From the NCBI GenBank assembly GCA_963807025.1, contig CAWDZT010000010.1:25301-89300 (forward strand): DNA of 64,000 bases. Direction: 5' to 3'. Both the position numbers and the translations under genes were made by a program. The notes under the pieces were generated by a model. The model was given only the letters and a program-made list of their open reading frames with translations, did not search any database and was not told where the DNA came from. Each line of letters starts with the position of its first letter. Positions within the stretch are counted from its first letter, which is position 1. Source of the stretch: an uncultured Candidatus Saccharibacteria bacterium. Lineage in GTDB: Bacteria; Patescibacteriota; Saccharimonadia; Saccharimonadales; UBA4665. Below are positions 9,595 to 62,853 of the stretch, one piece after another.

Positions 9595-9652
9595 CCCAGC
9601 ACCTTTCTTGTCCTTATTCACAACGTTACTCGTACTATTTGAAGGGTGCTGG
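9595..9652. repeat. palindromic element copy (CCCAGCACCTTT ... GAAGGGTGCTGG) in the rpsB-tsf spacer
   Basis: Inverted 12-nt arms with a 34-nt loop. One arm ends 2 nt before the tsf ATG. The first 32 nt are 28/32 identical to the solo copy at 18327-18358. Confidence 0.6.
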
Positions 9653-18326: not shown

Positions 18327-18358
18327 GACGTTGTGATAAAGGTCAAGAAAGGTGCTGG
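18327..18358. repeat. solo end of the CCAGCACCTT element family
   Basis: The reverse complement, ccagcacctttcttgacctttatcacaacgtc, is 28/32 identical to 9596-9627. It lies 1 nt after the stop codon of the 18360..19109 gene. Confidence 0.55.
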
Positions 18359-18359
18359 A

Positions 18360-21590: not shown

Positions 21591-21614
21591 GCGAATCGTG
21601 GTATATTGAAGCCT

Positions 21615-23656: not shown

Positions 23657-24417
23657 CTAGGCCAGGCGGTCTTGCACCTCTTTGGCCAGCGCCTTGTAGG
23701 CGCGGGCGCCCTTGCTCCAGCGGTCGTGCTCGTAGATGGTGCGCCCGTAACTGGGCGCCTCGGCCAGGCGCACGTTGCGCGGCACCATGGTCTTGAACAG
23801 CTTATCGCCGAAGTAGTTGGCAATTTCGGCCTGCACCTGTTCGCTCAAGGAGTTCCGCTTATCGAACATGGTCACGGCCACCCCTAACAGTTCCAGATGA
23901 GGATTGGTGCTGGAGCGCACCGCCTGAATGGTGTTAAGCAGCTGGCTCAGACCCTCCAGCGCATAATATTCGGCCTGCACCGGTATTATTACGCTGTCGG
24001 CGGCCGTCAGGCCGTTGATGGTCAGCAGACCCCAGCGACGGCGGGCAATCTATTATGACTACGTCGTGGCCGGCCGCCTTCCAACACCTTGCGCAGGGCG
24101 AATTCACGGTGTTCGCGCCCCACCAGCTCGACTTCGGCGCCGGCCAGGTCGGAATTGGCCGGCAGGACCGATAACTTCTTTATATGCGTCTTGTGCATGG
24201 CGTTTTTCAGGGGTGCGCCCTTGCACAGGACGTCATATGTGCCCTGTCCGCCATGCTCCTTGGAAAGCCCTAGGCCGCTGGTGGCATTGCCTTGCGGGTC
24301 CAGGTCGACAAGCAGTACCCGCATGCCTTCCGCGGCCAACTGGGCGCCGACGTTTATGGCCGTGGTGGTCTTGCCCACCCCGCCTTTCTGGTTCACCACC
24401 GCGATAGTTTTTGTCAT
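23657..24417 (-). CDS. parA: ParA/Soj chromosome partitioning ATPase (1-nt insertion near 24005)
   Basis: [19 protein letters not shown] (deviant Walker A). [14 protein letters not shown] is restored by removing one T. GGAGGG lies upstream of the ATG. Confidence 0.85.
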
Positions 24418-24921
24418 AACCCTCCGGAACTCAGTCTTCGGCCTTAAGTATAGCACCGCCCGAGCGCCACCTCCTATAGCCTATCTATAGTACTAAATGG
24501 CTAGCCTTGTAGTACTAGTTACTAGATTACAGGGGTAGACTACCCGCTTATTGGCCTGTAATACCCTCGTTTTAGGCGCTTTCAGGGGTAATATAAGCAC
24601 CTCCCGGTGTCTCCTACCGGTAGTATCTATAGTGTTTATGTATCGGAAACTCTACGACGCACAATATTGATGTACGGTGGCGTCATATGGTCTTGAAGAG
24701 CGGATCGCCTTGGATCATGCGGCGCAGCTGTTCCTGCTGCCGGCGCTCTTTGCGCGACAATCGTTTGAGCAAACGGTCGTCCTGTTGTTTCCTGACTTTT
24801 TGCGTTTGCATTTTAAAATTTCAAGGTTCAAGTTAATGATGGTTGGCCTGCCACCATGCCGCCTGGCTGTAGATCCGGAAGGCCGTAGCCGGCGTGCCGC
24901 GCCGCGTCTACGATCAACGAC

Positions 24922-25718: not shown

Positions 25719-25783
25719 ACGTTCATAGGAGCATATCAGAAAGCCCCGCCCCTGTAAAGGATGCCGACCATTAACCGATTATC

Positions 25784-25993
25784 GCGGATATGACATTCCC
25801 ATCCTCTGTTACAACATGTCAACATGTAGCTCGACGTTTTTGACCCCCAGAGGACATGTATGCCAACCTTCCCCTTAAACAAAACCACTAACACACCGCA
25901 AGGTACGCCTACTATTCACCTTACTCCTAACCCTAAAAACGTCGAGCTACATGTTGACATAGAACCGCCCCTGTTAGCGAATGTCATATCCGC
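25784..25993. repeat. MITE-like element, copy 1 (GCGGATATGACAT termini; inverted relative to copies 2 and 3)
   Basis: Outer inverted repeat gcggatatgacattc and inner inverted repeat atgtcaacatgtagctcgacgttttt. The interior matches the flanks of copy 3, with about 205 nt missing. Confidence 0.7.
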
Positions 25994-25998
25994 AACGA

Positions 25999-28899
25999 TC
26001 AAGAGGTCTGCGTGGTTCTAGCCAGACTGATGGTCAGCTCGGCGCTGTCGATCTTGACGGTGGCGCTATAGCCGTCCTTAACAGCCTCGTCCGAGGCTGG
26101 TAGCCAGGGTTTCCTGTTTGATAACATCAGCCAGGCCGGTATCTGTCAGGACGGCCTGCAGGTCTTTGTCGGAGGTTTCCAGCTGAAGATGGATGCGGTT
26201 GTCGACGTCCAGGCCGGCGTCTTTGCGGGCCTTCTGGACATGCCGCACCACTTCGCGCATCAGGCCTTCGCGTTTAAGAACAGGGGTAGCTTCGGTGTCC
26301 AGCTTGACCGCCTTGCCCCATTTGACCTCTTTGACATTGAGTTCCTCGGCGATGATATCGCGGTAGAGCGCCGGCAGTTCCGGTACGATTACGCCGGCAG
26401 AGGCTGGCGGACCTTGACCTTGGCTTCGGCGCGCTGGGCCAGGCCATCGACTATATAAGCGCGGGCGCGCTGGCCATCTCAGCGATCAGCTTCTTGTCGG
26501 CCTTGCCGGATTCCGGCCAGTCGCTTAGGTGGACGGACGCTGGCAGATCGGTACCTTCGGCCAGCTGTTGCCAGATGTGGTCCGGCAGGAACGGCGAGAA
26601 CGGAGCCAATAGCTGACAAAGGCGCAGCAAGGTGTAATGCAGGGTGGCATAGGCCTGCTGTTTGTCGGCGTCGTCTTCGCTCTTCCAGAAACGGCGGCGG
26701 GAACGGCGGACGTACCAGTTGGAAGCGTCATCCAACAACTCTGCGATGGGCCTGGTGGCCTTGTCCAGCCGATAGGCGTCCATGGCCTCCGTCACGGCCG
26801 CCGTAGCCTCGTTCAGGCGCGAGAGCATCCACTGGTCCAGGATGTTATCGCTCTTGGGTTCTACGAGCGGCTCGGAGGGCTTGTAGTGGTCCACGTCGGC
26901 GTAGAGCTTGTAGAAGTTGAAGATGTTGTTGAGCGTCATGAAGATCTTACGCTGGACGTCGCGCAGGAAGTCGGTGCTGAAGCGGGTATCTTCCCCGTTG
27001 ACCAGCGGGCTGGAAGCCATGAAGAAGCGCATGCTGTCCACGCCGTACTGGTCGAAGATGTCGTCCATGGGGGCGTAGTTCTTCTTGCGTTTGGACAGCT
27101 TTTCGCCGTCGGCGGCCACGATCCAGCCGGAACAGATGACGTTCTGGAAGGCCGGTTTGTCGAACAGCGCCGTGGCCAGCACGTGCAAGGTGTAGAACCA
27201 GCCGCGGGTCTGGTCCACCGCCTCGGCGATGAAGTCCGCCGGGAAGTTCTTCTCCCATTCGCCTTGTTCTCGAACGGATAGTGGTCCTGGGCGTAGGGCA
27301 TGGCGCCGCTCTCGAACCAGCAGTCGAACACTTCCGGTATACGCTTGGCGATCTTGCCGGAATCAGTCTTGATCTCGACGTCGTCTATGGACGGCCGGTG
27401 CAGATCGCCCACCTTCTGAGGGGTCGACGGCCCGTTTCTTAAGCTCTTCCACGCTGCCGACGACGGTGACTTCGCCGTCGTCGGTCACCCAGACCGGCAG
27501 CGGCGCGCCCCAGAAACGGTTGCGGCTGACGGCCCAGTCGCGGGCGCCACCCAGCCAGTTGCCGAAGCGGCCCTCCCTTATGTGTTCAGGTATCCAGTTG
27601 ATCTTGTCGTTATTCTTGACCAGGCGGTCGCGTACGTCGGTGACTTTGATCAGCCAGGAGTCGGTGGCGTAGTACAGAAGCGGCGTGTCACAGCGCCAGC
27701 AGAACGGATAGGTGTGCTTGATCGTCTCGGCGGCGTAAACCATGTCGCTTCTTGGTCAGGTGGGCGATTATCCGCTTATCGGCCGTTTTAAAAAATACAC
27801 CGGCTATGTCTTCGGGCAGGCCTATATCCGTAGAAACCTTGCCGTTGTCATCAATACTCAGCACAACGGGTATGTTGTGCTCTTTACCTAGCGATAAATC
27901 GTCCTCACCGAAGGCCGGCGCCACGTGCAGTATACCGCTGCCGTCCTCAATGCTCACGAACTCCGCCGGCCAAACTTTGTAGAGATTACTACGGTTTGAA
28001 TACGAATCGAGGCCTTTCAAATTGAACAAAGGTTCGTAACTGCGTCCGGCCAGCTCGCTGCCCCGCACTTCTTTGACGATGCTGTAAGTTTCGACATCCA
28101 GCGCCTCCAGCCGGTCGCGGGCCACGACCACGGTCTCTTTTTTGCCATCGTCGTCCTCCAGCTCCACGTATACGTATTTGGCGTCCGGCTTCACGGCGAT
28201 GGCGGCGTTGCCCGGCAGGCTCCACGGCGTGGTGGTCCAGCCTAACAGATAGGCGTCTTCGTCGGCCAGCTTGAACTTCACGAACAGGCTGGGGTCTTCG
28301 ACCCCGTCCTGGTAGCCCTGGTTAAGCTCGAAGTTGCTGAGCGGCGTGGCACAGCGCGGGCAGTACGGCGCACTGCGGAAGTCCTTGTACACCAGACCCT
28401 TGTCGTAGATGGTCTTGAACACATGCCAGACGCTCTCGATGTAGCTTTCGTCCAGCGTGGCGTAGGTCTTGTCGTAATCGGCCCAGCGGCCTACCCGGCG
28501 GAACATCGATCCTCCCAGAGGTCCTTGTACTTGAATACAGATTCGCGGCACTCGGCGTTGAACTTATCGATACCGTACTCGACGATGTCCTGTTTGCCCT
28601 TGAAACCGTGTTCCTTTTCGATGGCGTATTCCACCGGCAGGCCGTGCGTATCCCAGCCGATGCGCCGCGGCACGTAGTAGCCGCGCATGGTCTTGTACCG
28701 GGTGACGGTGTCTTTGATGGTAGTCTGTAACAGATGGCCGTAGTGCGGCGTGCCGTTGGCGAACGGCGGGCCGTCGTAGAAACTGAAGGTCTTGCCTTGT
28801 TCGCGCTGTTCTCAGGCTCTTTTCGAAGGTATGGTCGGCCTCCCACTCCTTGAGCAGGTCTTCCTCAATCTCGGCCAGGAAGTGTTTCTTACCTTTCAC
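25999..28899 (-). CDS. ileS: isoleucyl-tRNA synthetase (at least 6 frame pieces)
   Basis: [18 protein letters not shown] and the KMSKS variant [11 protein letters not shown] in ORF 26451..27218. Editing and N-terminal pieces are in ORFs 27363..28899. The C-terminus reads ...[13 protein letters not shown] after a shift. Confidence 0.85.
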
Positions 28900-34761: not shown

Positions 34762-34775
34762 ATTAGCCTCCTCTT

Positions 34776-34842
34776 CCCAGCACCTTTGTTGGCGGTTTTT
34801 ACAACTGGCACTGTTGGTAAAAACTGGCAATAAAGGTGCTGG
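34776..34842. repeat. palindromic element copy (CCCAGCACCTTT ... AAAGGTGCTGG) in the nrdR 5' leader
   Basis: 11-12-nt inverted arms with a 44-nt loop containing tttttacaac. It lies between the NrdR boxes and the nrdR SD. Confidence 0.6.
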
Positions 34843-34861
34843 ACTTACCATTAAATGTGCT

Positions 34862-35074: not shown

Positions 35075-36481
35075 TTATCCGGTTCTTTGCCGGGCTTTCG
35101 GATCGGCGTCGTCGGCTTTGTCGTCGGCTTCGTCGTCGGGGCTATCTTCGGTATCGCTTCCTTTGGGCTTATCGTCTTCGATGATCTCGTGCTCGGGCAG
35201 TTCTTTGGATTTGCGGCGGCGGCCCAGACGGCGCAGGAAGGAGGGCTTCTCCAGGTCATCTTCTTCGGTGTCGCCGAATCGTCTTTGCTCTTCTTTGTCG
35301 GCATCTGCATCTTCTTCATCACCGTTGATGGACCAAATATTGGGCATGGGGCGGTCATCCGCGAAGTCATGAGGCTTAGGCTTATTGTCATCGTCCAGGT
35401 TCATGTCGATTTCGGACAGGGCCTTCTCATCCTGCTTGGTGGTGTTGGTGTTAGCCAGCACCGGACTGCCATCAGGCTTATTGGAGGATGCCGATGCCGG
35501 TTTTTGCGGGCGGTGTTTATGATACGACGCGTCGAAACCGGTAGCGACCACGGTGATTATGACCTCGCCTTCCAGCTCCGGATTGACGGTGGCACCGAAG
35601 ATAATGTTGGCTTCCGGGTCCGCCGCGGCGGTGATGGCCTCGGCGGCGGCGTTGATCTCGTGCATAGCCAGGTCGTTGCCGCCGATGACGTTGAACAGGA
35701 TGCCGCGGGCTCCGTCTATGGATACTTCTAACAGGGGTGATTCTATGGCCTGCTGGGCGGCCGTGACGGCCCGGTTCTCGCCGGTGGCGCGGCCGATGCC
35801 CATAAGGGCCGAGCCGGCCTTGGCCATGACGGTCTTGACGTCGGCGAAGTCCAGGTTGATCAGGCCGTGTACGGTTATAAGGTCGGATATGCCTTGGACG
35901 CCCTGCCTTAAGACGTCGTCCGCGACCTTGAAAGCCTCGGTAAGGGGGGTGTCGCGGTCGATGGTCTCTAGCAAGCGGTCGTTAGGTATGACTATGAGCG
36001 TATCGACGGCATCGCGGAGTTTTTCGATGGCAACCTCGGCATTGCGCCGACGCTTTTCTCCTTCGAACGCGAACGGCTTGGTTGCGAACCCGACAACCAG
36101 GGCCCCGGAATCCTCCGCTACCTTGGCCACTATGTGGCCGCCGCCGGAACCGGTGCCGCCGCCGGCGCCGATGGTCACGAAGACCATGTCGGCCCCCTGT
36201 ATGGCTTTCGTAATCTCGTCGCGCGATTCCTCGGCGGCCTGCTGGCCGACCGTGGGATCGGCGCCGGCGCCTAAGCCGCGGGTAGCGTCCTTGCCGATGT
36301 GTATCTTCTTGCCGGCCTTGCTGTGATGGAGTGCCTGGGCATCGGTATTGACGGCTATGAACTCGACGTTCTCTATACCTGCGTCTATCATCCGATTGAT
36401 AGCGGCGCCTCCAGCGCCACCCACGCCTACGACCTTTATGTTAGCGAACGTCTCTATAGCCGGCTCAACAACTTCTGCCAT
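35075..36481 (-). CDS. ftsZ: cell division protein FtsZ with long acidic/basic C-terminal linker
   Basis: [13 protein letters not shown] and GGGTGSGGG tubulin signature. ATG at 36481 preceded by GAGGGAAAA. An alternative frame would extend the tail to 34990. Confidence 0.9.
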
Positions 36482-36670
36482 GATTTTCCCTCGCAAAAAG
36501 CTCAAATTGTATAGCTGTCAGTATACCCCAGCGCCTTCCCCAAGTCCAACAAATTTATACGGTAGTTTTCTGCAATTTCGCCGCCACGTCCGGGCAGACC
36601 GATTTTTTACGCGGCGCCTTGGCTGTGCGCATGAACCTTAAGCAATTTTGTGTTCGAGCACCGTACCGTT

Positions 36671-36864
36671 GCGGATATGACATTCCCTAACAGGGGTGAT
36701 TTATGTCAATATGTAGCTCGGCGTTTTTAAGGTCCAAGGTAAGGTATGCGTCATTGCCGTGTGTCTTCGCTACGATGCTGATATAGGTGCAGGGCTGTTG
36801 AAGGTCAAATATGCCGAGCTACATATTGACATGTTGTAACAGAGGGCAGATATGTCATATCCGC
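36671..36864. repeat. MITE-like element, copy 2, in the ftsA-ftsZ spacer
   Basis: The same outer (gcggatatgacat) and inner (atgtcaa(c/t)atgtagctcg(a/g)cgttttt) inverted repeats as copies 1 and 3. It starts 12 nt downstream of the ftsA stop. Confidence 0.7.
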
Positions 36865-36876
36865 GGGCAAAGCCGT

Positions 36877-38136
36877 TTAGCTTTTGAAACGGCGGAACAT
36901 ACCGTCCAATATGGCGCGGGCGTGCCGGCCGCCGGCCCCGCCCAGGCCTTTGGCGCCTCCCCTGCCGTGCGCAGGAGGTAACTGGGGCAGCAGAAGCATA
37001 TCCAACAGCATCAGGCCCACCACGGTTACGTAATCCTGGCCTTCCACGGTGTCGGCCAGACCGCCGACGTTATGGAGCTTGCCGACGCGGGCCGGCAGTT
37101 CCAGATGATCGCGGGCGAATTCGTCTATGCCCGGCAAGGCGGACGTGCCGCCGGTGATGACCACGCCGCCAGGCAGTTTGCCGGCCCGCTTGATCTTCTG
37201 AAGTTCCTTGTTCACGTATTCCAGCAGTTCTTCGACCCGGGCGCCGGTTATCATGGATATCTCTTCGAAGTCATAGTGGTGCGTCTTGTGGCCGATCTTG
37301 ACGCTGACGTTCTGCCGGTGCGGACCGCCCTCTTTTAGGCTGGCGTGCTGAAGTTTGACGGCTTCGGCTATGTCCAGGTCGGTGCGCAGGCCGATGGCCA
37401 AATCGTTGGTAATGTGCTGGCCGCCCATGGGTATGACAGCTACGTGCTGGACCTCGCCGTCCTCGAATACTATCAGGTTGGTCGTGCCGGCGCCGATGTC
37501 GATAAGGGCCGTGCCGGCTTCTTTTTGCTGGCGCGTGAGCACGGCCTCGGCGGCCGCCAGGCCGGATACGGTGTGGTGGTTGGGCGCGATGCCGGCCTTG
37601 TCGAGCGTCATGTCCAGATTGCGCAGGTTCGGCGATGACGCGGTGACAATATGGGCATCCACCTCCAGGCGCACGCCGTGCATACCTACCGGGTCCTTGA
37701 TGTTCTTCTGGCCGTCCAGACTGTAATTCTTGGCGAAGAACTGGATGATCTCGCGATTGGGCGGCAGACTGACGATGGTGGCGGCCTCCTCTACCCTCAG
37801 GCGGTCCTCCGGGGTGATTTCCCGGTTGGCCGCGGATATGGCGATGACGCCTTCGGAGTCCTGGCCGCTGACGTGCGCACCGTTGACGTTGACGGTGGCA
37901 TTCCTTATATGCACGCCGGAGATACGCTCGGCCTCGGTAACGGCCTTGGTTATGGCTTCGGCTACTTCGTCCACGTGCACCACGGCGCCGCGGCGCATAC
38001 CCTGGTTGGGCGCCTGGCCATGGCCTATTACCGAAGGCAGATTACTGCCGTTAGGGTCGAAGCCGCCTACCACGCATCGTACCGTGGAGGTGCCTATATC
38101 AAGGCCTATGAAATGCTCTTGGTTTTGGTTGTTCAT
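36877..38136 (-). CDS. ftsA: cell division protein FtsA
   Basis: Intact 419-aa ORF with actin-like ATPase motifs (IGLDIGTSTVRCVV; DIGAGTTNLIVFEDG). Confidence 0.9.
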   Translation of the reverse strand: MNNQNQEHFIGLDIGTSTVRCVVGGFDPNGSNLPSVIGHGQAPNQGMRRGAVVHVDEVAEAITKAVTEAERISGVHIRNATVNVNGAHVSGQDSEGVIAISAANREITPEDRLRVEEAATIVSLPPNREIIQFFAKNYSLDGQKNIKDPVGMHGVRLEVDAHIVTASSPNLRNLDMTLDKAGIAPNHHTVSGLAAAEAVLTRQQKEAGTALIDIGAGTTNLIVFEDGEVQHVAVIPMGGQHITNDLAIGLRTDLDIAEAVKLQHASLKEGGPHRQNVSVKIGHKTHHYDFEEISMITGARVEELLEYVNKELQKIKRAGKLPGGVVITGGTSALPGIDEFARDHLELPARVGKLHNVGGLADTVEGQDYVTVVGLMLLDMLLLPQLPPAHGRGGAKGLGGAGGRHARAILDGMFRRFKS

Positions 38137-38479: not shown

Positions 38480-41400
38480 ATCGCTGAAGCCCGCCCGCGT
38501 TCCGAAGCGCCTGCGTGGCCACGCTTCTAGCGCTATTCGGCCGATGCCTTCTTGCTGGTTCTGCCCCACCAGGCCTACGCAGCATCGTATACCTGGGACG
38601 GCGGAGGCGCGACCAATAACTGGAGTGATTGCGACAACTGGAGCAGCAACATCTGTCCCGTTTCCGGCGATACGGTAACGTTCAACGGCACTTCTACAAA
38701 GAGCGCGACGGTCGATGCTTCATTCACCGGTACCATAACGACCATTAACATCAACTCCGGATATACGGGTACTATCAGCCTGAGCCGCAGTCTGACCGTC
38801 TCTTCCACGTTCTCTCAGGCGGCCGGCACGTTCAGCGCCGGCAGTCAAACGCTACATGTGGGCGGAGCCCTTACGCTGTCTGGCGGCACATTCAACGCCG
38901 GAACCGGGACAGTGGACTTCAATGGCACGACCTCGGCTACCATAAGTTGTAACAATGCAACTTTCAACAATGTAACCTTCTCCCACACCGGCGGGACTAA
39001 GACTGTCGGCAGTGATTGTAGTTTGCCGATGGGATCCGGCCCCAGCGCCAATAGCGGCGGATCGATAGCCTTGGAAGGTACTTTTAGCGGCAGCGGCACG
39101 TTGACGACCGGGGGGACTTTGACGCTGAGTAGGCGGATCATGTCCCGGTGCCGCAGGCGGTAATGCTATCGGGTTATGACTCCGGCCATGACGGCGGGAA
39201 CGCATCCGGCTTCGGTTGCGGTGGCGGTGGTGGCGGTTGGTACGGCGGCAAAGGCGGAAACGGCTTGTACGGTGGAGGCGGCGGTGGTGCCGCCGGAGGC
39301 CAGTTAGCCCATGCCGGCGGTACGGGCGGCCAAGGCGTCGTAGCCATCAGCCCTGATAGCGGTTCAAACGTGGTAAAGACTTCTGGCACTTCCTGGACGG
39401 TGCCAGCCGGGGTTACAAGTATAAAAGTATGGGCTATCGGTGCAGGCGGCGGCGGGGCGGGAGTCAGTACATCAGACTCAAGTGCAGGCGGCGGCGGTGG
39501 GGCGGGCGGAGTCGTATATCAAACATTTTCTGTTACGCCAGGCGATACCGTCTCGTATAGTTTAGGGAGCCGGCGGGAGCCGGCGGATCCGGCGCCAGCA
39601 ACGGCTCTAACGGCGGCAATACGACGGCTACGGTAGGCGCCACCACGATAACCGGCGGCGGCGGCACGGGCGGTAAGTATAATACCGCGCGCTACGGCCG
39701 CAGGAGGCAGTTATACCGGCGGAGACGGCGGGACCACCGGCGGGAGCGGTTCCGGCGCTTCAGCGGCGACAACGGCGGCGGCGGTGGCGGCGGTATCGGC
39801 GGCGGCAACGCCACTCAAACGCGGCAACACCGGCGATGACGGCGGCCAGAGCAGTGACGTCTCCGGGCTATTCGCTGTGCATCTCCGACCAAGGCTATCT
39901 TTCCACCGGTTCTTTGTCGGGTTTTTCCGGCTTGTCGGCAACAATTTGACCGTTAACAGCACCGCTAAGTTTCGGCTCATACAGCACGTTTACCGTCAGC
40001 GGCGCATTTTCGCTTGAGTGCCAGCCGGCAGTTTCACCGCGCCATCGGGAACGGCTTCAGTTCTGCCGGCACATTCACTCTAGATTCCAGCGCCACTTTC
40101 AGCGCTAACAGCGGGACGATAAACTTCAATGGCAGTACGGCCACGTTGTCGTGCGGTAGCCAGACGTTCAACCGTGTTACCTTCACGCACACCATCGGCA
40201 CCAAGACCGTAAGTACTGACTGCACCTTGCCTATGGGGTCCAACCCTAGCGCCAACAGCGGTGGGTCGATCGACCTGCAAGGTACTCTGAGCGGTAGCGG
40301 CACGCTTACTACCAGCGGCCTTCTGACCCTGGGTACCTCCAGCAGTACGTCAAACAACATAAACGGCGAGGACGCTTCGGGCTTCGGCGACGGGGGTGGC
40401 GGAGCCGGTTATTATGGCGGTAACGGCGGAGCCGGCCTTTACGGTGGTGGTGGTGGTGGCGCAGCCGGCTATACAACCACGAACCGAGTCGGCGGTGATG
40501 GCGGCGGCGGCGTGGTAGTGCTCTCGCCCGATGTAGGCGCTGACTCGGTGAAGACTTCCGGCACTTCCTACACGGTGCCGGCCGGAGTTTCAAGCATCAA
40601 AGTCTGGGCCATCGGCGCAGGCGGCGGCGGCGCCGGATCCACCAATAATAACAGCGGGGCCGGTGGCGGAGGTGGGGCCGGGGGAACCGTTTATCAGACA
40701 TTTTCGGTCACGCCGGGCGATACGATCACTTATAGCCTGGGTACAGCCGGTAGCGGGGGTACGGATACCAACGACGGCAGTGACGGCGGAAACACCACCG
40801 TCACGGTAGGCGCTACTACCATAACCGGCGACGGCGGCTCCGGAGGTACCTATAACGACGGCAGCAATGCCAACGGCGGCAGTTATTCCGGCGGAGACGG
40901 CGGCTATGACGGCGCGCCTGGCTTCGGCGCTTCCGGCAACACGGGCGGTGGCGGTGGCGGTGGTATCGGCTCGACCAACGTTCCGCCATCACTGGCGACA
41001 GATAGCGTAGGCAGTGCTGATGGCACACCGGTTAATAGCCCTGATACTACCGCTTCACCCGTCAAGCTAGGTAGTCATGCGGGCGATTTTACCGGCTCGA
41101 ATGATTATCTCGCCATAGACAGCGATCTGATCGACCTGACAAGCGACTGGTCATTTGAAACATGGCTTTACCTGACTACGACCAGCGGCACGAACCCCCG
41201 TATTTTCGGGATGGTGGACAACACTCACAGCCTAAACCTACAGGTCGGCTATACCAGTTCGGGCATACCGTATATAAGAGTAGGCAACACGCTACATTCT
41301 TTTACTCCGACTTTCAGCACCGGCGGCTGGCAACACGTCGTCTATAAGTATGACAGCGGCTCGTACTACCTGTATATCAACGGTACAAAATACAGCGTTA

Positions 41401-43236
41401 CCGGAAGTTCCGGGCCAAGCGCCAACACGTCTTTCGCTGGCATAGGGGCGGCCGGCAGTTCCACTTACCAGATAACCGGCTATCTTGACGATGCGGTGTT
41501 ATACGACGGCGCTTTGACCGATGCCGAAGTGACAGACCGATACAATAGCGGTTCAGGAACGGAAGCCTTGTCCGGTGGCGGCTGGGATGTTTCAGACAGA
41601 GCCATATCGCAATGGCACATGAATGAAAGTGCCTGGGATACCTCAAGCAGTTACAGCGCCGGGCCTACGGAGGGCGGTACCGCCGGTGATACCGGCGGCC
41701 AGGGCCAGGACGTCTCAGGCCTGTTCGTACAGTGTCTCCGGACTGGGCTACGCCACGACGGGGCCTGGTGACGGCGGTGGCTCCAGCACCGGATCCTCCG
41801 GCTCTACCGGTGTATTGTCCGGCTTTTCCGGCTTGGCGGCCAGTTCGATTGACCGTCAACAGCACTCATAATTTCGGCTCGTACAGTCCGTTCACGGTCA
41901 GCGGCAACTTCTCGTTGAACTCCAGCGGCAGTTTCACCGCGCCATCGGGTACGGCCAGTTTCGGCAGCAATTTCACGCTTAAGAGCAATTCGACTTTCAG
42001 CGCCAATGGCGGCACGGTTAATTTTAACGGGGGAACAGCCGCGTTGTCGTGCGGTAATAAGACGTTCAACCGTGTCACTTTCACCAATGCTTCCGGCACG
42101 AAGACAGTAGGCACTAACTGCAGTCTGCCGCTAGGCAGTAACCCGAATGCCAACAGCGGCGGATCAATCAGCCTGAACGGTACCCTGTCGGGCAGCGGCA
42201 CGCTGACGACCGCGGGGACTTTGACGCTGGGCGGAGCCGGCAGTCTATCCGGCCTTACCGGTTTGGCGACAAACGCATTGACTGTGAACGGATCCTATGA
42301 CTTCGGCTCGTACAGCCCATTCACGGTCAACGGCAACTTCACTCTTGGCGGCAGTCTCACTGCTCCGTCAGGCAGTTCGACGTTCGCGGGCAACTTTACT
42401 AACAACGGTTCCTTTGCTGCCAATGGCGGCACCATGTCGGTGGCCGGTAACTTTGCCAACAGCGGTACCTTCAATCGCCAACGGCGGCACGGTGGTGCTG
42501 AACGGCTCCGGCCAGACCCTTTCCGGCAGTACGGCCTTCTATAACCTGACCAAGACGGTGTCTTCCGCCGATACCCTGACCTTCGCCGCCGGCAGTACCC
42601 AGACCGTCTCGGGCAAGCTGACACTCCAGGGAGCAGACGACAATCTGCTGAGCCTGGTCTCGGGTACGCCAGGCACACAATGGCTGGTCAACGCCGAGGG
42701 TACGATCGGACGTGTCTTATGTCGACGTGTCGGACAGTTCCAACACGGGCAATACCATCGACGCCTGCTTCAGCACCGACAGCGGCAACAACAGCGGCTG
42801 GAACTTCAACCCCACGTCATGCTACCCCGACAACGGTGGTAGCGCGACCTCCACGATAACCAATTTCCTGCTCGCACAATCCGCGCTAATCAACAATATC
42901 CGGGGTGGCAACAACGGGGCCTTCACCCTGCCCGACAACACCAGCAACGGTCTGCCCTCCCAGATCTTCAGCTTCCTTAAACAGCTGCCGGCTGGCCAGA
43001 GCCTACTGGCGGCTGCCAAGGAATTCTTAAAGGCCATGCTGTACGGCTTGGTGATAGGCATACTGCTGGGCATGCTTCTGGTCTGGCGGCACCGGCGTCT
43101 GGAGGCCCTGGCAGAAAGCGAAGGCCTGATTGATGTACCTAACAGCGTGATTCCTGATGAACCTATGGACGGCATATCCGTACGGAGCGCCGGCCGCAGC
43201 AGGCAGTACCGTCACTCCAACCAAGAAGAAACATGA
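38480..43236 (+). CDS. mosaic cell-surface protein of about 1,550 aa: three beta-helix-like modules, two glycine-rich domains, a LamG-like domain and a C-terminal TM anchor (at least 7 frame pieces)
   Basis: ORFs 38552.., 39148.., 40014.., 41732.., 42297.. and 42712..43236 continue one another after +/-1 shifts. Signal-peptide-like end LLVLPHQAYA|ASYTW. Paralogous modules start near 38891, 40098 and 41996. Gly-rich domains contain TSGTS(W/Y)TVPAGV(T/S)SIKVWAIGAGGGGAG. LamG-like region DWSFETWLYL...YLYINGT. TM segment LVIGILLGMLLVW. Confidence 0.6.
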
Positions 43237-50517: not shown

Positions 50518-51090
50518 ATGACCAAAGAAGACATCATCGCCCTGCCGAACCCCCACCTCAGGCAGAAATCCAAGCGTGTAGGCATCATAACCGGCGATAT
50601 AAAGCGGATAGTCGAGGATATGCAGGAGGCTACGCTGGACTGGGACGCCAGCCGCGCCCACGAGACCGGGGTGGCACTGGCCGCCGTCCAGATCGACCGG
50701 CTTTATAAGATAGTGGTAGTGCGCGATGACTACGGCGACAAGGACAACCACGACTTCACGGTGTTCATCAATCCGGAGATAACCAAGCTGGAGGGCGAGA
50801 TCAAGGCCGACTTCGAGGGGTGCCTGAGCGTACCCGACGTGTACGGCAAGGTGCCGCGGCACACCAAGGTCAAGGTGAAGGCGCTCGACCTGAACGGCAA
50901 ACAGTTCCGCGTGACGGCCGAGGGCTTCCTGGCGCGCATCTTCCAGCACGAGATCGACCACTGCAACGGCACGGTGTTCGTCGACCGCATCAAGGGCGAC
51001 CCGGAAGCTTTCTATCACCTTGGCAAGGACGGCAAACTGGAACCGCTGGATTATGAAAAAGATGTCAAAGACAATAGTATTCTTTGGTAG
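50518..51090 (+). CDS. def: peptide deformylase
   Basis: GVALAAVQI, EGCLS and HEIDH motifs. Confidence 0.9.
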   Translation: MTKEDIIALPNPHLRQKSKRVGIITGDIKRIVEDMQEATLDWDASRAHETGVALAAVQIDRLYKIVVVRDDYGDKDNHDFTVFINPEITKLEGEIKADFEGCLSVPDVYGKVPRHTKVKVKALDLNGKQFRVTAEGFLARIFQHEIDHCNGTVFVDRIKGDPEAFYHLGKDGKLEPLDYEKDVKDNSILW

Positions 51091-51954
51091 CGGCCCGGTA
51101 GCCGCCGCCAGCCTGCGCCTGCTGGCCCGCGACTTCGAGGTCGAAGCGGTGGTCACCAAGCCGCGCCCGCCCCATCATAAATACCCCTTCCCTGTGCTGG
51201 CGCTGGCCGAAGAGCTGGGCCTGAAGACCTTCACCGCCAGCAGCACCAAAGAGGCCTCCAAGCTGTTCGCGGACCAGTCCGTTCAAGAGCGAACTGGGCG
51301 TGATCATCGACCACGGCATCATCCTGGCGCCCGACGTCATCAATTACTTCCCTTTCGGTATCGTGAACAGCCACTTTTCCCTTCTGCCGCTTTGGAAAGG
51401 CCCCGACCCCATAAGTGCCGTCATCCTGAACGGCGACCGCGAAACAGGGGTCAGCCTGATGCTCATAGCCAAAAAGCTGGACCAGGGCCGGCTTATAGCC
51501 CAGGAACGGGTACCGGTTCCCGGCGACATCACGACCCCTGGGCTGACAGACCGGCTGATATCCGCCAGCCATGACCTTTTGGTAAAGACGCTGCCCGCGC
51601 TACGTCGCCGGCCAGGTACAGCCCTACCCCCAACCCGACATAAAGCCGACGTTCTCGCGCAAGCTTTCGAAGGCGGACGGCGCTGTTGACTGGTCGAAGC
51701 CGGCCCTGCGCTTGGAACGCGAAGTGCGAGCCTATGCCGACTGGCCGAAGAGCCACGCGAAGCTAGGTGCCACCGACGTGATAATCACCAAGGCACGCGC
51801 CGTTGACGAAGATTTTCAACCCGGCTCGATACACGCCGAGAATAAACGTCTAATGGTCGGTGCCGGTAAGGGCTCTTTGGAAATCATGGAGCTGAAACCG
51901 GCCGGCAAGCGCGAGATGACAGCCGCGGCCTTCCTGGCCGGCCACAAATTCTAA
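51053..51954 (+). CDS. fmt: methionyl-tRNA formyltransferase (2 frameshifts, near 51290 and 51600)
   Basis: IVFFGSGPVAAASL start, NSHFSLLPLWKGPDPI motif, and a C-terminal domain in ORF 51712..51954. It overlaps the end of def. Confidence 0.85.
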
Positions 51955-51963
51955 CCATTCGTT

Positions 51964-52377
51964 GCAGATATGACATTCCCTAACAGGGGTGATTCTATGT
52001 CAACATGTAGCTCGACGTTTTTAGGGTTAGGAGTAAGGTATATGTTAAAGCGTACCTTGCGGCTTGTTAGCGGTTTTGTTTAAGGGGGAGGTTAGCAGAG
52101 TCCGAGTGGTTTTAGCGCTGGCCGGGTGGTTGCGCGGCAGGGTCTTAGCGCCAAGTAGCCCTGACTGTAAGTGTAAGTAGGACCATGCAGGAATCTAGTA
52201 GGATCCTCCTTTCATCATCCATTAAACATACCCTTAGCATACCTATGGTTAGGCATACGGTATTACATGGGTACCCGGCTTACGCCCATGGGGCTATGCA
52301 TACATAACGCCTGGAGGTCAAAAACGTCGAGCTACATGTTGACATGTTGTAACAGAGGGCAGGAATGTCATATCTGC
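51964..52377. repeat. MITE-like element, copy 3 (longest, 414 bp), between the convergent fmt and DUF5663-like genes
   Basis: gcagatatgacattccctaacaggggtgattctatgtcaacatgtagctcgacgttttt ... aaaaacgtcgagctacatgttgacatgttgtaacagagggcaggaatgtcatatctgc. No ORF of 60 aa or more inside. Confidence 0.7.
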
Positions 52378-52385
52378 AACGATCA

Positions 52386-53095
52386 CTAAACTAAATGGCT
52401 ACTGACTGGGCTGGGGCCTGCCGGAGGCTGTTGCGGAGGGAGTGGCGGCTGCGGAGCAGGATCAGGTTGCGGGGGTAGCGGAGCCGGTTGGGCCGGCGAT
52501 TGAGGATTAAAAGGTGGCTGTGTGGCCGGGCCAGGGGCCGGTGACGAACCAGGCAGGGGCTGGGTAGGAGGCGGCGCAAGGCCGGGACCTGGAGCAGGCG
52601 GCGGAGACGGAGCCGGTTGCGATTGTGGTTGAGGCGGTGCGGCTGGAGGACCCGCAGATGGTGTCTGCTCCGGCGCTTGTGGCGCTTGTGGCGCAGGAAC
52701 GCCAGTGGTACCGACTGCGGGAGCACCCGAGGGAGCGCCCGGCATTCCGGCAGGAGCCTGGCCCTGGCCGGCTTGGCCGGCCGCCGCCTTATCTTGAGAA
52801 GCGGCCAATATCTGGGGCGCGGTCTGGGCGACTTCGGCCTTGAGCTTGTCGAATTCCTGCTGGACTATCTCTTTGTAGTTAGGGAAGTTGGCTTCCAGCC
52901 ACTTGAAAGCGCCGGCATCGTCCTTGGCCTCGAAGTATTTCTCGAATTCGTCCAACTGCTGGTTGGTCATCTGATCGGCCAGGCGGATACCCACGCGCAT
53001 CTCGAGTGTCTCGTAGATGTGCTTTAAGAAGCTGTTCTTCTCTGAAGCCGGCAATGATGCCAGTCCCACTTCTTCCAGCAAGCTATTATCAATCT

Positions 53096-53102
<7 letters not shown>
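52386..53102 (-). CDS. DUF5663-like protein with long Pro/Ala/Gln-rich C-terminal tail
   Basis: The N-terminal 100 aa (LLEEVGLASLPASEKNSFLKHIYETLEMRVG) resemble a domain I recall from Saccharibacteria-type genomes. The tail is low-complexity. Confidence 0.5.
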
Positions 53103-54937
<1,835 letters not shown>

Positions 54938-54952
54938 CGACACTCCTTTCCG

Positions 54953-54980
54953 CCCAGCACCTTTGTCCAAAGGTGCTGGG
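54953..54980. repeat. minimal hairpin CCCAGCACCTTT-gtcc-AAAGGTGCTGGG in the rpsA-infB spacer
   Basis: Perfect 12-bp stem with a 4-nt loop and no U-run. It lies 8 nt after the rpsA stop and 16 nt before the infB ATG. Confidence 0.7.
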
Positions 54981-58796: not shown

Positions 58797-59168
58797 ACCC
58801 AAGCGGGCGGCGGCACGGTTCTTAAGAAGCTAATGAACGTACTGGTGCTACGATGCTTCGTAAGCACCGACGACCGGTCAATTGCGCGTAAAAAGTCAAT
58901 GCCTCTATTAGTACGCTTCGGCTACACATGTCGCCATGCTTCTACCTTGCGCCTATCAACCTGATGGTCTTTCAGGGAGGTCATAGGGAAATCTTATCTT
59001 AAGGGAGGCTTCGCGCTTAATATGCTTTCAGCGCTTATCCCGTCCGCACGATAGCTACTGGACAATGCTCCTGGTGGAACAATCCATACACCAGAGGTGC
59101 GTTCGACCCGGTCCTCTCGTACTAGGGCCAACTCCTCTCAAATTTCCTTGCGTCCACAGCGGGTATAA

Positions 59169-59239
<71 letters not shown>

Positions 59240-59253
59240 AAGGTGCTCCCCCT

Positions 59254-59288
<35 letters not shown>

Positions 59289-59573
59289 AGCGCCGTCTAT
59301 GTGAACTATTGGGCGCTATAAGCCTGTTATCCCCGGCGTAACTTTTATCCGAAAGCGCTGCCGATACCACTCTCATGTACATGAAATGTACGGACAGCGG
59401 AAAACTTACTCCTACTTTCGTACCTGCTCGGCTTGTAGGCCTCACAGTCAAGCTGGCTTATGCGTATACACTATCACTACGATTTCCATCCGTAGTTAGC
59501 CAACCTTTGAACGCCTCCGATACTCTTTAGGAGGCAACCGCCCCAGTTAAACTACCCACCAGACACGGTCCCA

Positions 59574-59768
59574 GAACCAGAAACATCCACGAATCCGTTT
59601 AGGCGATATCAGATACATTCGCGCCGAGACCTAATTTACGGTCTCTTGCGAACGTACCTGAATCGCTTTACTAGCGACTCGCGCATATTTCTGAGACACC
59701 GTAATTTAGGTGTCGGGGAAATATGCGACGATGTCGCTAGAAGCGGTTCATGGGCAGTTTGTGGTCCT
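59574..59768 (-). other. rRNA expansion of about 170 extra nt at the position of 23S helix 79
   Basis: Only about 23 nt separate GACACNGUC and GUUAGAACA in E. coli, against about 195 nt here. It contains the hairpins GCATATTTC..GACACC-taaattac-GGTGTC..GAAATATGC and GAGACC-gtaaatta-GGTCTC. It has no CCAGCACCTT ends. Confidence 0.6.
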
Positions 59769-60212
59769 GGTAAGAACAAGATCATGACAAGGGTGGTATT
59801 TCACTGATGGCTCCACCGCCGACTAGCGCGGCGGCTTCAAAGCCTCCCACCTATGCTACACATGTCATAACCCGGCTCAATGCCAAGCTGTAGTAAAGCT
59901 GCACGGGGTCTTTTCGTCCTGCTGCGGACAGACGGCATCTTTACCGCCAATGCACTTTCACCGAGCTCTTCGTCGAGACAGTACCCATATCATTGCGCCA
60001 TTCGTGCAGGTCAGAACTTACCTGACAAGGAATTTCGCTACCTTAGGACGGTTATAGTTACCGCCGCCGTTCACCGGGGCTTCAGTTTGCTGCTAAACAC
60101 AGCTCACCTTAACCTTCCGGCACCGGGCAGGCGTCAGCCCGTATACATCCACTTTCGTGTTAGCACAGACCTATGTTTTTGGTAAACAGTTGCATGGGTT
60201 CCTTAGCTGCGG

Positions 60213-60272
60213 CCCAGCACCTTGCTAACCACGAATTACATCGTTGTAAATCATGACCAGAAAGGTGCTGGG
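60213..60272. repeat. 60-nt palindromic element copy within 23S (helix 63 region)
   Basis: cccagcaccttgctaaccacgaattacatcgttgtaaatcatgaccagaaaggtgctggg lies between conserved AAGTTACGG.. and ..CAACTGTTTACC blocks. Confidence 0.65.
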
Positions 60273-60760
60273 CAGGCCTTATTCCGAAGTTACGGCCGCT
60301 GTTTTGCCGAGTTCCTTGACGAAGAATCACTCGTACACCTTGGTCTTCTCGACCTGAGCACCTGTGTCGGTTTGCGGTACGGATAGCATAGTCCACGCGC
60401 CGGAATGCTTTTCTAGTCAGCACTTTTACTGGAATCCGACCATAAGGTCGTCTCATTCGCAGGCGTTCCTCCTGCTTAGACGGGTATAACCGTGAACCCG
60501 CTCCAACTAATATGCCGCGCACATCCGGCAAGACTACGCTAGTACGGGAATATTAACCCGTTGTCCATCGCCTACGCTACGCGCCTCGGCTTAGGACCGA
60601 CTAACCCTGGGACGATTATCGTGGCCCAGGAAACCTTGCTCTTTCGGTGGGCAGGATTCTCACCTGCCTTATCGTTACTCGTTCCAGCATTCTCACTTCC
60701 TAACGCTCCACGGAATCTCGCGATTTCGCTTCGGCGCGATAGGAACGCTCCTCTACCGCC

Positions 60761-60829
60761 CCCAGCACCTTACTTAGCATTTTTTACATACATACGCGAT
60801 GTTGTAAACAATGCTAAGTAAGGTGCTGG
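60761..60829. repeat. 69-nt palindromic element copy within 23S (helix 45 tip)
   Basis: cccagcaccttacttagcattttttacatacatacgcgatgttgtaaacaatgctaagtaaggtgctgg replaces the H45 hairpin between GAAGNU..GG and GGTAGAGGAGCGTTC. Confidence 0.65.
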
Positions 60830-61444
60830 AGACCCATATCTTCGGTACTACGCTTGAGCCCCGTTACATTTTCCGCGCGGGATCTCTTGACGAGTGAGCT
60901 GTTACGCACTCTTTAAATGAATGGCTGCTTCTAAGCCAACATCCTCGTTGTCGAAGAAATCCCACCTCGTTTCCCACTTAGCGTAAATTTAGGGACCTTA
61001 GATGATGGTCTGGGCTGTTTCCCTTTTGAGCGACGAGCTTAGCCCCGCCGTTCTAACTGCCGTAGTTCCACTGACCGTATTCGTAGTTTGTCAAGGGTGG
61101 GTATCCGTAAGGACCCCATTCCGAAACAGAGCTCTACCCCAGTCAGCTACCGTACGACGCTAGCCCTAAAGCTATTTCGAGGAGAACCAGCTATCTCCAG
61201 GTTCGATTGGCATTTCACCTCTAACCACAGGTCATCCGGGCATTTTGAAACATGCTGCGGTTCGGTCCTCCACGCAGTTTTACCTGCGCTTCAACCTGCC
61301 CATGGTTAGGTCACCTGGTTTCGGGTCTAATCCATACAACTAATTCGCCCTATTCAGGCTCGCTTTCACTATGCCTACGACAAATGTCTTAAGCTTGCTG
61401 CATGAATTAACTCGCTGGATCGTTCTACAAAAAGCACGCCGTCA

Positions 61445-61865
61445 CCCAGCACCTTTACCATCAACATTTACAACGGTCCGGTTCAATCGAATGAACGATT
61501 AAACTGGTCTATGGCCTTCGGGAAACCAAGCTGTTTCTTAAGCTTAGTTCTCGCTTGGCCGTAATGTTTTAGCTGCTTCTCTCTTGCTAACGCTAATCTT
61601 CGTGAGGTATATGCCTCATAATAAACGATTTTCCAGGGGCGCAAACGTCTCGTTGAAACGTTTTCGCCGGCATTATGCTGACCTAATCTTCTCTTTAGAT
61701 TGTTGGTCTGACCATAGTAGATATGTCGCTTATTCCGAAGACTCTGCAGAATATAGACGTAAAGCACAGCTCCACTGTATATTCCACCCATCTCCGTTCA
61801 AAGAAATTTAACATTAGTTTAAGAAGCAACCAGCCGTTGTCAAATTTGATGACAAAGGTGCTGGG
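61445..61865 (-). mobile_element. 421-bp element with about 33-bp imperfect terminal inverted repeats, carrying a GIY-YIG ORF, inserted at 23S helix 25
   Basis: Left end cccagcacctttaccatcaacatttacaacggt. Right end (reverse complement) cccagcacctttgtcatcaaatttgacaacggc. The ends are 27/33 identical. The flanks correspond to E. coli GGGAG|..H25..|UGACUGCGUACC. Confidence 0.65.
61483..61791 (-). CDS. GIY-YIG nuclease family protein (102 aa), same strand as the rRNA
   Basis: VLYVYILQS...HIYYGQTNNLKRRLGQHN...RPWKIVYYEAY...ALAREKQLK matches GIY..YIG, the conserved Arg, and the catalytic Glu context. Confidence 0.8.
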   Translation of the reverse strand: MGGIYSGAVLYVYILQSLRNKRHIYYGQTNNLKRRLGQHNAGENVSTRRLRPWKIVYYEAYTSRRLALAREKQLKHYGQARTKLKKQLGFPKAIDQFNRSFD

Positions 61866-62290
61866 CTCCGACTCCTTGTACGCACACAATTTCAGGATCT
61901 ATTTCACTCCCCTTCCGGGGTTCTTTTAACCTTTCCCTCACGGTACTTGTACACTATCGATCGTAAGATATATTTAGCCTTGGGAGGTGGACCTCCCGGA
62001 TTCAGTCAGGGTTTCACGTGTCCCGACTTACTCGACTCTGCAAGTGATAAAGTTCGTAAAACTTGGTATACCAGGCTTTCACTGTCTGTGGCCCCACTTT
62101 CCAGAGGGTTCTACTCGCATTACGTATTTATGACTTTATGCCGATTGATGGTAGCATCGGCGCCTTTTGCAACCCTTCATAAAAAGGGTAACAAAAGGTT
62201 ACTTGCAGGTCACAACCCCTTAATAACATTCGTCTACCAACTTATCCATCCGGCAAATTGCCAGATGAAAGTCATTAAGGTTTGGGCTGA

Positions 62291-62321
<31 letters not shown>

Positions 62322-62853
62322 ATTGGTTATTTTCTCTTCCTCAGGGTACTAAGATGTTTCAGTTCCCCTGCTTACCACTACCCGACCCTATATATTCAGG
62401 CCAGTGTGACCAGGTATGACCCTGGCCGGGTTTCCCCATTCGGACACCTCCGGATCAAAGCATATTTGGCTGCTCCCCGGAGCTTTTCGCAGCTCATCGC
62501 GTCCTTCGTCGGTATCTTACGTCAAGGCATCCGTTATGTGCGCTTGAGTAACTTTTTACGATTTGACTTGGCTACCGTTCGGTGAAGATCGGCACCAAGC
62601 CTAAAGTGCAATTGACCGGTCATCGGTGATTACCTAAGTAACTCCGACTCCGTCGTCCATTGCTTCTCTTTGAATCACCCTGTTAAAGGGGTGATCCGTC
62701 GACCTAATTGTTAAATTGCTAAACTCGGAAACTTGCTGATACGCGGTGGTGCCTAAAAGCACCCTCCCTATCATTCAAGCTTGAGTTTACGTTCAACTTT
62801 TCTGCCTAATTGCCCGGCTGACTAGCCTGGACCTAAACTCAAGCGTTCATATA

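Follow-up and report, generated by a model that had tools for sequence, protein, structure and literature searches.

Three non-coding stretches in a 64-kb window (the whole stretch of DNA that was analyzed) share nested inverted repeats, which enclose two spacers that carry one motif on the same strand. What kind of element do these stretches represent, how might it have reached its positions, and does the shared motif speak for a strand-specific function, as the initial annotation had concluded? The window was assigned to Candidatus Saccharibacteria (Saccharimonadales) by FtsA, FtsZ, and neighboring genes, with FtsA identities of 86–87% to the best species-level relatives and of 92% to the best match in a larger protein collection. 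All genes in the window are housekeeping genes.

Copies and anatomy of the repeat family

We found a dispersed repeat family with three copies in the 64-kb window. The 26-nt inner repeat ATGTCAACATGTAGCTCGACGTTTTT had five matches at up to three mismatches, every one of them within the three copies (0.00 in shuffles), and a sixth arm, on the right side of copy 2, had four mismatches. The outer repeat GCGGATATGACATTCC was present at 6/6 copy ends, with 0.45 occurrences expected in the whole window. A family of three copies with nested inverted repeats, as proposed from the first reading of this DNA, was recovered through both repeats. The boundaries first given for it require an adjustment: at the A end, which is the side of CTAACAGGGG, all three copies read CGTTGC(G/A)GATATGACAT, and the family extends 4 nt further there than initially stated, which gives the following coordinates for the copies, listed with the parts of copy 3 and with a matching site in ftsZ.

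25784–25997, minus strand: copy 1 (214 nt), running from A end to B end on the minus strand
36667–36864, plus strand: copy 2 (198 nt), running from A end to B end on the plus strand
51960–52381, plus strand: copy 3 (422 nt, the longest), running from A end to B end on the plus strand
51960–51979, plus strand: outer inverted repeat of copy 3, A arm CGTTGCAGATATGACATTCC, pairing perfectly with 52362–52381
51980–51996, plus strand: A spacer of copy 3 CTAACAGGGGTGATTCT, 17 nt, not complementary to the B spacer
51997–52022, plus strand: inner inverted repeat of copy 3, left arm, 26 nt, with GTAG within
52023–52319, plus strand: central region of copy 3, 297 nt, non-coding, without an Rfam match, about 205 nt of which are missing from copy 1
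52320–52345, plus strand: inner inverted repeat of copy 3, right arm, 26 nt
52346–52361, plus strand: B spacer of copy 3 GTTGTAACAGAGGGCA, 16 nt, with TAACAGAGG, which shares its strand with the motif of the A spacer
52362–52381, plus strand: outer inverted repeat of copy 3, B arm GGAATGTCATATCTGCAACG
35728–35747, plus strand: 20-nt stretch in ftsZ (gene on the minus strand) at the AIESPLL codons, the plus strand of which equals the copy 3 A spacer, as its probable source or as its target

Read from A to B, the element consists of an outer repeat of 13–20 nt, a 17-nt spacer, a 26-nt inner repeat, a center whose length varies among copies (about 60–300 nt), the second inner repeat, a 16-nt spacer, and the second outer repeat. 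Perfect terminal inverted repeats span 13 nt in all copies and reach 20 nt in copy 3 (CGTTGCAGATATGACATTCC/GGAATGTCATATCTGCAACG), where the A-end extension is mirrored at the B end; the B end of copies 1 and 2 terminates at ...ATGTCATATCCGC (...CATATCCGC). The CGTT at the A end lies outside the 13-nt repeat, before GC(G/A)GATATG, and is conserved in 3/3 copies. As it is also mirrored at the other end of copy 3, CGTT could equally belong to a terminal repeat of 17–20 nt, whose B-end version was shortened in copies 1 and 2.

The A spacer of every copy contains TAACAGGGG and the B spacer contains TAACAGAGG, such that TAACAGRGG is carried on the same strand by two spacers that are not complementary to each other, a feature that the initial annotation had described correctly for all copies. 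Both ends represent the same unit, TGACAT-N4-TAACAGRGG-N6/7-ATGTCA, in direct orientation, with 6-bp stems and 20-nt loops, and the long inverted repeats run through these end units because the unit edges are inverted hexamers. Outside the copies, TAACAGRGG occurred four more times on the plus strand, with 0.66 occurrences expected in the whole window. Additionally, the outer edge of the inner repeat bears GTAG (ATGTAGCTCGACG), and the 26-nt inner arm had no internal palindrome.

The alignment of copies 1 and 3 agreed with the view that copy 1 is an inverted copy 3 from which about 205 central nucleotides were lost (about 203–205 nt by our alignment), while copy 2 had the arms and ~20 nt of the center in common with copy 3 and nothing else. 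Between copies, arm identity was 89–95%. The G+C content of the element was 46–48%, vs. 57% for the window. None of the three copies contained an ORF of at least 60 aa, as had been reported before, and six-frame reading revealed stop codons in every frame; a coding remnant in the 297-nt center of copy 3 was ruled out by stops in all frames. The 422-nt copy 3 is closest to the source form, and the 214-nt and 198-nt copies are internal-deletion derivatives.

Insertion sites and distribution

Each copy occupies a tiny neutral gap that separates a stop codon from the functional signal following it. Copy 3 lies between the convergent stops of fmt (TAA, 51952–51954, 5 nt away) and of a DUF5663 gene (52386–52388, 4 nt away). 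The A end of copy 1 is located 1 nt past the ileS stop (25999–26001), and this copy is upstream of an intact, conserved rplU promoter and gene. The B end of copy 2 is 12 nt from the ftsA stop (36877–36879), and on the other side of this copy lies the conserved region upstream of ftsZ. Copies 1 and 3 are co-oriented with ileS and fmt, and copy 2 is opposite in orientation to its neighboring genes. Outward or internal promoters in the element were represented by one weak hybrid candidate, no more than in shuffles.

The initial annotation had pointed to empty sites in relatives as informative, and all three positions were short and empty there, which favors a mobile element. The stop-to-stop distance between fmt and the DUF5663 gene was 0–25 nt in most of 37 relatives (1 nt in L013), vs. 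431 nt here, and the longer gaps of some relatives were filled by small genes and not by the element. Three further relatives, with DUF5663 N-termini that were 95–97% identical, also had this site without the element. The ftsA–ftsZ spacer had ~175–210 nt in most relatives, vs. 396 nt here, and 396 nt minus the 198-nt element equals the usual length. Copy 2 falls precisely where the ftsA stop is followed by the conserved CGAACACAAAATTGCTTAAGG block, a spot at which the closest relatives, L013 and L092 (the latter 92% identical), had different, lineage-specific sequence. Similarly, the ileS–rplU spacer was 40–110 nt in most relatives, vs. 280 nt here. Because relatives have all three sites in a short, empty form, the element represents a lineage-specific insertion, and as it is missing there from these essential-gene junctions, it cannot represent a conserved host function. 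The comparison was made with other species only (FtsA identity of 92% or less), without same-species strains, such that exact insertion boundaries cannot be read from the empty sites.

No further copies were found in ~1.3 Mb from ~85 related genomes by blastn, nhmmer arm profiles, or an arm covariance model, and an exact 18-mer of the inner repeat had 0 matches in GTDB, represented by one genome per species. The same 18-mer had 11 single matches in JGI metagenomes, which were judged to be due to chance because, in all 11, the 18-mer was alone and the second arm was missing; two matches in IMG/VR, obtained with three patterns, were also judged to be chance. Blastn of plasmid and phage collections revealed no similar DNA. 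Concatenated six-frame peptides of the copies were searched against a set of 5.8 billion proteins, under the rationale that gene callers might have called ORFs in other copies, and nothing scored. The 64-kb window contained no transposase, recombinase, or reverse transcriptase, and no RAYT or TIRYT (Y1) gene was found in it; an autonomous insertion sequence with matching ends was found neither in the window nor in ~1.3 Mb of relatives.

At gathering thresholds, no Rfam match overlapped any copy, in line with the previous statement that the family could be assigned to no known ncRNA class, and a search with copy 3 only at E up to 10 returned two chance-level matches (15 and 13 bits vs. thresholds of 60 and 44). 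No consistent target-site duplication of any length was detected among the three well-preserved copies under every plausible end definition. Candidate duplications were GAT (copy 1), AT, and TGCA/CGCG within the repeat, none of which was valid for all three copies. An integron attC site was rejected because the R'/R'' consensus was unmet and there were no cassettes, and there was no resemblance to parS, dif, or DnaA boxes.

The A spacer, ftsZ, and the predicted fold

The A spacer of copy 3, together with 3 nt of the inner repeat (CTAACAGGGGTGATTCTATG, 51980–51999), was identical at 20/20 positions to the plus strand at 35728–35747, which is the antisense of host ftsZ at the invariant AIESPLL codons. 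The BLAST E value of this match was 0.011, and the longest exact match of shuffled copies to the window was 17 nt in 200 trials, typically 12–13 nt. All 70 relatives checked had the same or nearly the same 10-residue FtsZ peptide, with D for E in a few. The 20-mer includes six synonymous sites at which 70/70 relatives differ, with 18/20 identities in the best relative and 12–16/20 in most; because relatives diverge at these sites, the spacer matches the ftsZ of its own lineage. The 20-mer had a 1-nt deletion in copy 2 and two changes in copy 1, one of which still allows G-U pairing. The predicted duplex between the 20-mer and ftsZ had −36 kcal/mol, vs. −25 to −29.5 kcal/mol for the best matches of 15 shuffles, an approximate control in which shuffles were made from a different, 25-nt sequence (the B loop). 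The B spacer had no outstanding match in the window compared to shuffles, and had only the TAACAGRGG core in common with the 20-mer (~11/19 nt).

The A spacer could be filler DNA that was copied from ftsZ via template switching, maybe seeded by a pre-existing TAACAGGGG, and the overlap between the 3' ATG of the 20-mer and the inner repeat could reflect microhomology. A derivation of the A spacer from ftsZ, of which it is a 20-nt antisense copy, would give the spacer a different origin. To conclude on a strand-specific function from the same-strand motif, as the initial annotation did, went too far: motif conservation across three copies was statistically indistinguishable from background.

Each copy was predicted to form one long hairpin, with the two spacers as an internal loop (z-scores of −5.3 to −9.5), and the 20-mer was located within this mostly unpaired loop of the predicted fold. 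Comparison of the three copies revealed three base pairs that were altered on both arms with complementarity retained: outer pair 7, which is A-T in copy 3 and G-C in copies 1 and 2, and inner pairs 8 and 19, which changed in copy 2. No uncompensated changes were present across the three copies in outer pairs 5–17 or inner pairs 1–20. In a shuffle control, the observed covariation was reached in 24/500 shuffles, which is weak with three sequences. Arm covariation as a sign of selected complementarity is suggestive only, and arm-to-arm gene conversion would yield the same compensated pattern. The G-U pairs in the arms were confined to the A-to-B strand.

Probable nature and inferred movement of the element

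The three copies probably represent a mobile DNA element that is non-autonomous and restricted to its lineage (a broadly defined MITE). The element is small (<~600 bp) and non-coding, and has terminal inverted repeats and dispersed copies with empty sites in relatives; low G+C content compared to the host, a series of internal deletions, and the lack of ORFs of 60 aa or more inside the copies are further MITE-like traits. A target-site duplication at each copy, also characteristic of MITEs, was absent. The initial designation as MITE-like therefore held for repeats, size, and dispersal, but neither for target-site duplication nor for an autonomous partner, which was sought in the window and in ~1.3 Mb of relatives. 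This family of palindromic elements is new, with features that are unusual but have precedents, and it differs from each specific known family in defining traits; we found no report of miniature mobile elements in Saccharibacteria or other CPR bacteria.

While mobility itself is well supported, the mode of movement is what we infer. Given mobility, our tentative preference is for single-strand, hairpin-dependent transposition. The element would be transposed in trans as single-stranded DNA by a strand-specific, hairpin-recognizing enzyme. The gene for this enzyme, an HUH/Y1 transposase of either RAYT/TIRYT or IS200/IS605 type, would lie in another part of the genome. Recognition would involve the folded arms together with the TAACAGRGG units that both ends carry on the same strand, and insertion would occur beside CGTT without duplication of the target. 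After insertion, copies 1 and 3 must become part of the ileS and fmt mRNAs, at whose 3' ends they would form a very stable hairpin. The absence of a duplication, the fixed CGTT, the like-oriented end units, and the compensated arms fit this single-strand model better than classical cut-and-paste, although none of them is proof. Also fitting are GTAG at the inner-repeat edge and a preference for positions shortly past ORF ends, where the adjoining genes are co-directional or convergent. Points against it are the perfect terminal inverted repeats, which are more typical of DDE elements and unlike those of IS200/IS605, the small end units, whose 6-bp stems and loops of 20 nt set them apart from known TnpA or RAYT hairpins, and the lack of a Y1 gene in the 64-kb window. 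The remaining probability belongs to other duplication-free mechanisms (IS110-like, serine recombinase) or to none of those named.

Among known systems, the element acts most like REPIN/REP-type or TIRYT-associated repeats and looks most like a MITE. REP units are local palindromes of 20–40 nt with a 5' GTAG tag, two of which in inverted orientation form a REPIN (PMC3733652; Bertels & Rainey, PMC3337134). REPs have been reported downstream of ORFs, between co-directional or convergent genes (PMC3733652), and Y1 transposase genes flanked by long TIRs and moderately abundant repeat families have been described (Di Nocera et al., 2013; PMC3733652). Similar to REPIN/RAYT and TIRYT “TIRtron” repeats, the element in our window is non-coding and has long hairpins, complementary arms, and no target-site duplication, and similar to REPs, it has GTAG at the outer edge of the inner repeat, is found downstream of ORFs, and is expected to be recognized strand-specifically. 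In contrast to a REPIN, its 26-nt arm is not a palindrome and its end units are direct rather than inverted; it also has three copies in the window, 2–4x the typical REPIN length, and no RAYT/TIRYT gene in the DNA examined. The TIRYT-associated motif GGGGWSAS was not convincing, as GGGGTGAT fits at 7/8 positions in two copies and at fewer in copy 1.

IS200/IS605 elements have single-stranded intermediates and subterminal structures (PMC6006769). This family, which includes IS608 and ISDra2 and has miniature derivatives, inserts 3' of a fixed tetra- or pentanucleotide without target duplication, and the candidate for such a tetranucleotide would be CGTT here. Similar same-strand units at both ends are a further likeness, and a dependence on the folded strand would explain the compensated changes. 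IS200/IS605 elements have no terminal inverted repeats and have tight subterminal hairpins with short loops, whereas our element has 13–20-nt terminal and 26-nt inner repeats, and its end units have loops of 20 nt on stems of 6 bp.

Correia elements (NEMIS) of Neisseria are 100–155 bp long, have one pair of 26-bp repeats and a duplicated TA target, and occur as full-length and internally deleted forms near genes, where they are co-transcribed and form long RNA hairpins. The element described here is likewise miniature and gene-adjacent, with terminal inverted repeats and deleted forms, but its end sequences are not known to be related to theirs, and there was no TA duplication at the three copies. 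QMITE1 and QMITE2 of Coxiella burnetii are also MITE families of 150–400 bp in a reduced genome, often located in 3' untranslated regions, with direct repeats of 2–3 nt and 7–11 nt and ~50 copies each (PMC5896051). One of them has a GTAG palindrome in its long terminal repeats, and some copies yield small RNAs (PMC5896051). Unlike these QMITEs, our element has no direct repeats at its copies, and the sequences are unrelated.

The main alternative mode of movement would be that of a classical MITE, in which an internally deleted derivative of a DDE insertion sequence is cut and pasted via its terminal inverted repeats, with the inner repeat as an additional, subterminal binding site for the transposase. 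We regard this as rather unlikely, even though perfect terminal repeats of 13–20 nt, small size, the deletion series, intergenic sites, and empty sites in relatives would all be accounted for, and such elements are the commonest type among described bacterial MITEs, including Coxiella QMITE1/QMITE2 (PMC5896051). Three well-preserved copies without a target-site duplication argue against it, as do the direct spacer motif, where transposase sites at two ends are normally inverted, and the three compensated arm changes, which are unexpected if two protein-binding sites decay independently; a partner IS was also missing from the window and from ~1.3 Mb of relatives. It is very improbable that the copies represent a host-encoded DNA site spread by recombination, either an invertible or excisable segment between recombinase sites or a binding array for a host protein. 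Two direct TGACAT-N20-ATGTCA units with dyad edges and an asymmetric core do resemble paired recombination sites, and the excess of TAACAGRGG on the plus strand outside the copies (four vs. 0.66 expected window-wide) points in the same direction. However, the asymmetric cores of known tyrosine or serine recombinase sites are far shorter than the 20 nt observed here. Furthermore, the center had the same orientation relative to the arms in 3/3 copies, revealing no inversion, there was no recombinase gene nearby, and relatives lacked the element at essential-gene junctions. As to chance similarity or an assembly artifact, which is scarcely credible, the window does resemble an error-prone long-read assembly in which many housekeeping genes are frameshifted. 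Nevertheless, six arms of a 26-nt repeat were found where 0.00 were expected, and fold-back errors lead to large palindromes at contig ends, not to dispersed copies of 200–420 nt. Because the copies are at three distinct loci, each with its own substitutions and unique flanks, they do not represent an assembly artifact.

The match to ftsZ raises another reading, in which the element would be an RNA device, acting as a trans antisense regulator of cell division or as a cis hairpin terminator or stabilizer. In its favor are the 20/20 identity to the antisense strand of host ftsZ, including the six lineage-specific synonymous sites, the predicted duplex of −36 kcal/mol with the 20-mer in a mostly unpaired predicted loop, the A ends of copies 1 and 3 at 1 nt and 5 nt past co-oriented stop codons, and G-U pairs exclusive to the A-to-B strand. 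We nonetheless consider such a device improbable: it corresponds to no Rfam family, copy 2 is opposite in orientation to its neighboring genes, the 20-mer is imperfect in copy 1 (two changes) and copy 2 (1-nt deletion), the window offers the B spacer no conspicuous target, and the ftsZ target is mid-gene, away from the ribosome-binding site. Template switching that captured 20 nt of filler accounts for the identity without function. Slightly more doubtful still is the specific proposal that the A-spacer loop would be kept complementary to ftsZ mRNA, as an antisense seed in the 3' ends of ileS and fmt transcripts. The same low likelihood applies to the element as a mobile carrier of anti-ftsZ RNA, with the nested repeats as a scaffold presenting the seed, and to the second loop as a degenerate copy of the seed. 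DicF of E. coli is a prophage-encoded antisense RNA of 53 nt that pairs at the ribosome-binding region of ftsZ. Under this speculative reading only, our element would resemble DicF as a mobile-element-borne RNA complementary to ftsZ mRNA, with the differences that complementarity is mid-gene and that the RNA is a prediction from sequence.

In a phylum that has received little study, a new miniature element is useful but not surprising, and the ftsZ match is the one unexplained detail. If this antisense match were functional, the family would be a rare case in which a regulator of host cell division resides on a mobile element, and if the anti-ftsZ reading were true, a selfish or domesticated element would have a DicF-like handle on the division of an ultra-small episymbiont. 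Apart from ftsZ, the family could be used as a marker for strain tracking and, under the preferred single-strand model, would be a compact system in which strand-specific transposition that depends on hairpins could be tested outside Proteobacteria. Genomes of Saccharibacteria and other CPR bacteria have ~1 Mb and almost no spare intergenic DNA. Insertions only 1–12 nt from the stops of ileS, ftsA, and fmt indicate that non-coding mobile DNA is still active, or was so until recently, in genomes as compact as these.

Split reading frames

Several essential genes in the window are broken across two or three frames, as listed here.

Genes with split reading frames
26000-28600, ileS
51020-51954, fmt
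53096-54970, infB
21600-22200, parB
23900-24460, parA

The pattern suggests indel errors in a long-read assembly, not true pseudogenes, and calls for caution with single-base differences among the three copies of the nested-inverted-repeat element, for example the 1-nt gap of copy 2. Beside copy 3, comparison with a close relative (L097) revealed a 1-nt deletion in the DUF5663 gene (window 52386-52410) immediately ahead of the ancestral stop codon, which makes the ORF 7 codons longer and brings its end to 4 nt from the element. This deletion could be either a genuine change or an assembly error.

A second palindromic family in the 23S rRNA gene and elsewhere

The 23S rRNA gene (58887-62558, -) is about 750 nt over the length of the Rfam model and carries the following insertions.

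Insertions in the 23S rRNA gene (gene on - strand)
60212-60273, insertion
60762-60831, insertion
61445-61865, insertion

In a partial alignment, at least one of these insertions, located in a helix loop, was made up of a second palindromic family with the structure CCCAGCACCTTT-N~18-ACAACG / CGTTGT-N-AAAGGTGCTGGG, and two more copies of this family lie inside the gene. The arms of the largest copy in the gene are 357 nt apart and enclose an ORF of 102 aa (61483-61791, -) that matched a GIY-YIG nuclease domain (E = 3e-17). Further representatives of the CCCAGCACCTTT...ACAACG hairpin family occur across the window, at gene ends and possibly within genes.

Further copies or half-copies of the second family
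8395-8424, copy or half-copy
9596-9626, copy or half-copy
18328-18360, copy or half-copy
34773-34845, copy or half-copy
54659-54718, copy or half-copy

The inner boundary of this family, ACAACG/CGTTGT, resembles the CGTTGC at the end of the element under study, though the likeness may be due to chance.

The TAACAGRGG motif outside the element

Apart from the element copies and the ftsZ match, TAACAGRGG occurs at three additional sites on the + strand (34978, 38223, and 62867), against an expectation of 0.66 for the whole window. The site at 62867 has 13 nt (TAACAGGGGCGGT) in common with the spacer variant of copy 1, and the rplU promoter (25725-25757, -) has in its -35 region TTTACAG(G/A)GGCGG, which is kept across relatives and is similar to TAACAGRGG. 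It is possible that this lineage uses TAACAGRGG as a regulatory word, or the recurrence may reflect chance.

Apparent recurrent insertion spots, and extra DNA in the window

The distance from ftsA to def-fmt is approximately 12 kb in the window versus only approximately 6 kb in relatives, and the extra DNA (38500-42600) includes tandemly repeated genes encoding large glycine-rich or LamG-domain proteins with internal repeats. Exactly at the spot occupied by copy 2, the two closest relatives carry differing inserts of about 130-150 nt (L013, 11230-11390; L092, 3663-3800), each with its own hairpins and located between the ftsA stop and a conserved CGAACAC block. This position is a repeated landing site for lineage-specific DNA. 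At the fmt|DUF5663 junction, about one-third of relatives (among them L031, L035, L066, L085, L024, L025, and L039) have 290-1900 nt of other DNA, which in several of them looks like a small gene; two of these, L031 and L035, have in common an upstream TATTGACA...promoter-like leader. The junction appears to be a hot spot of gene gain.
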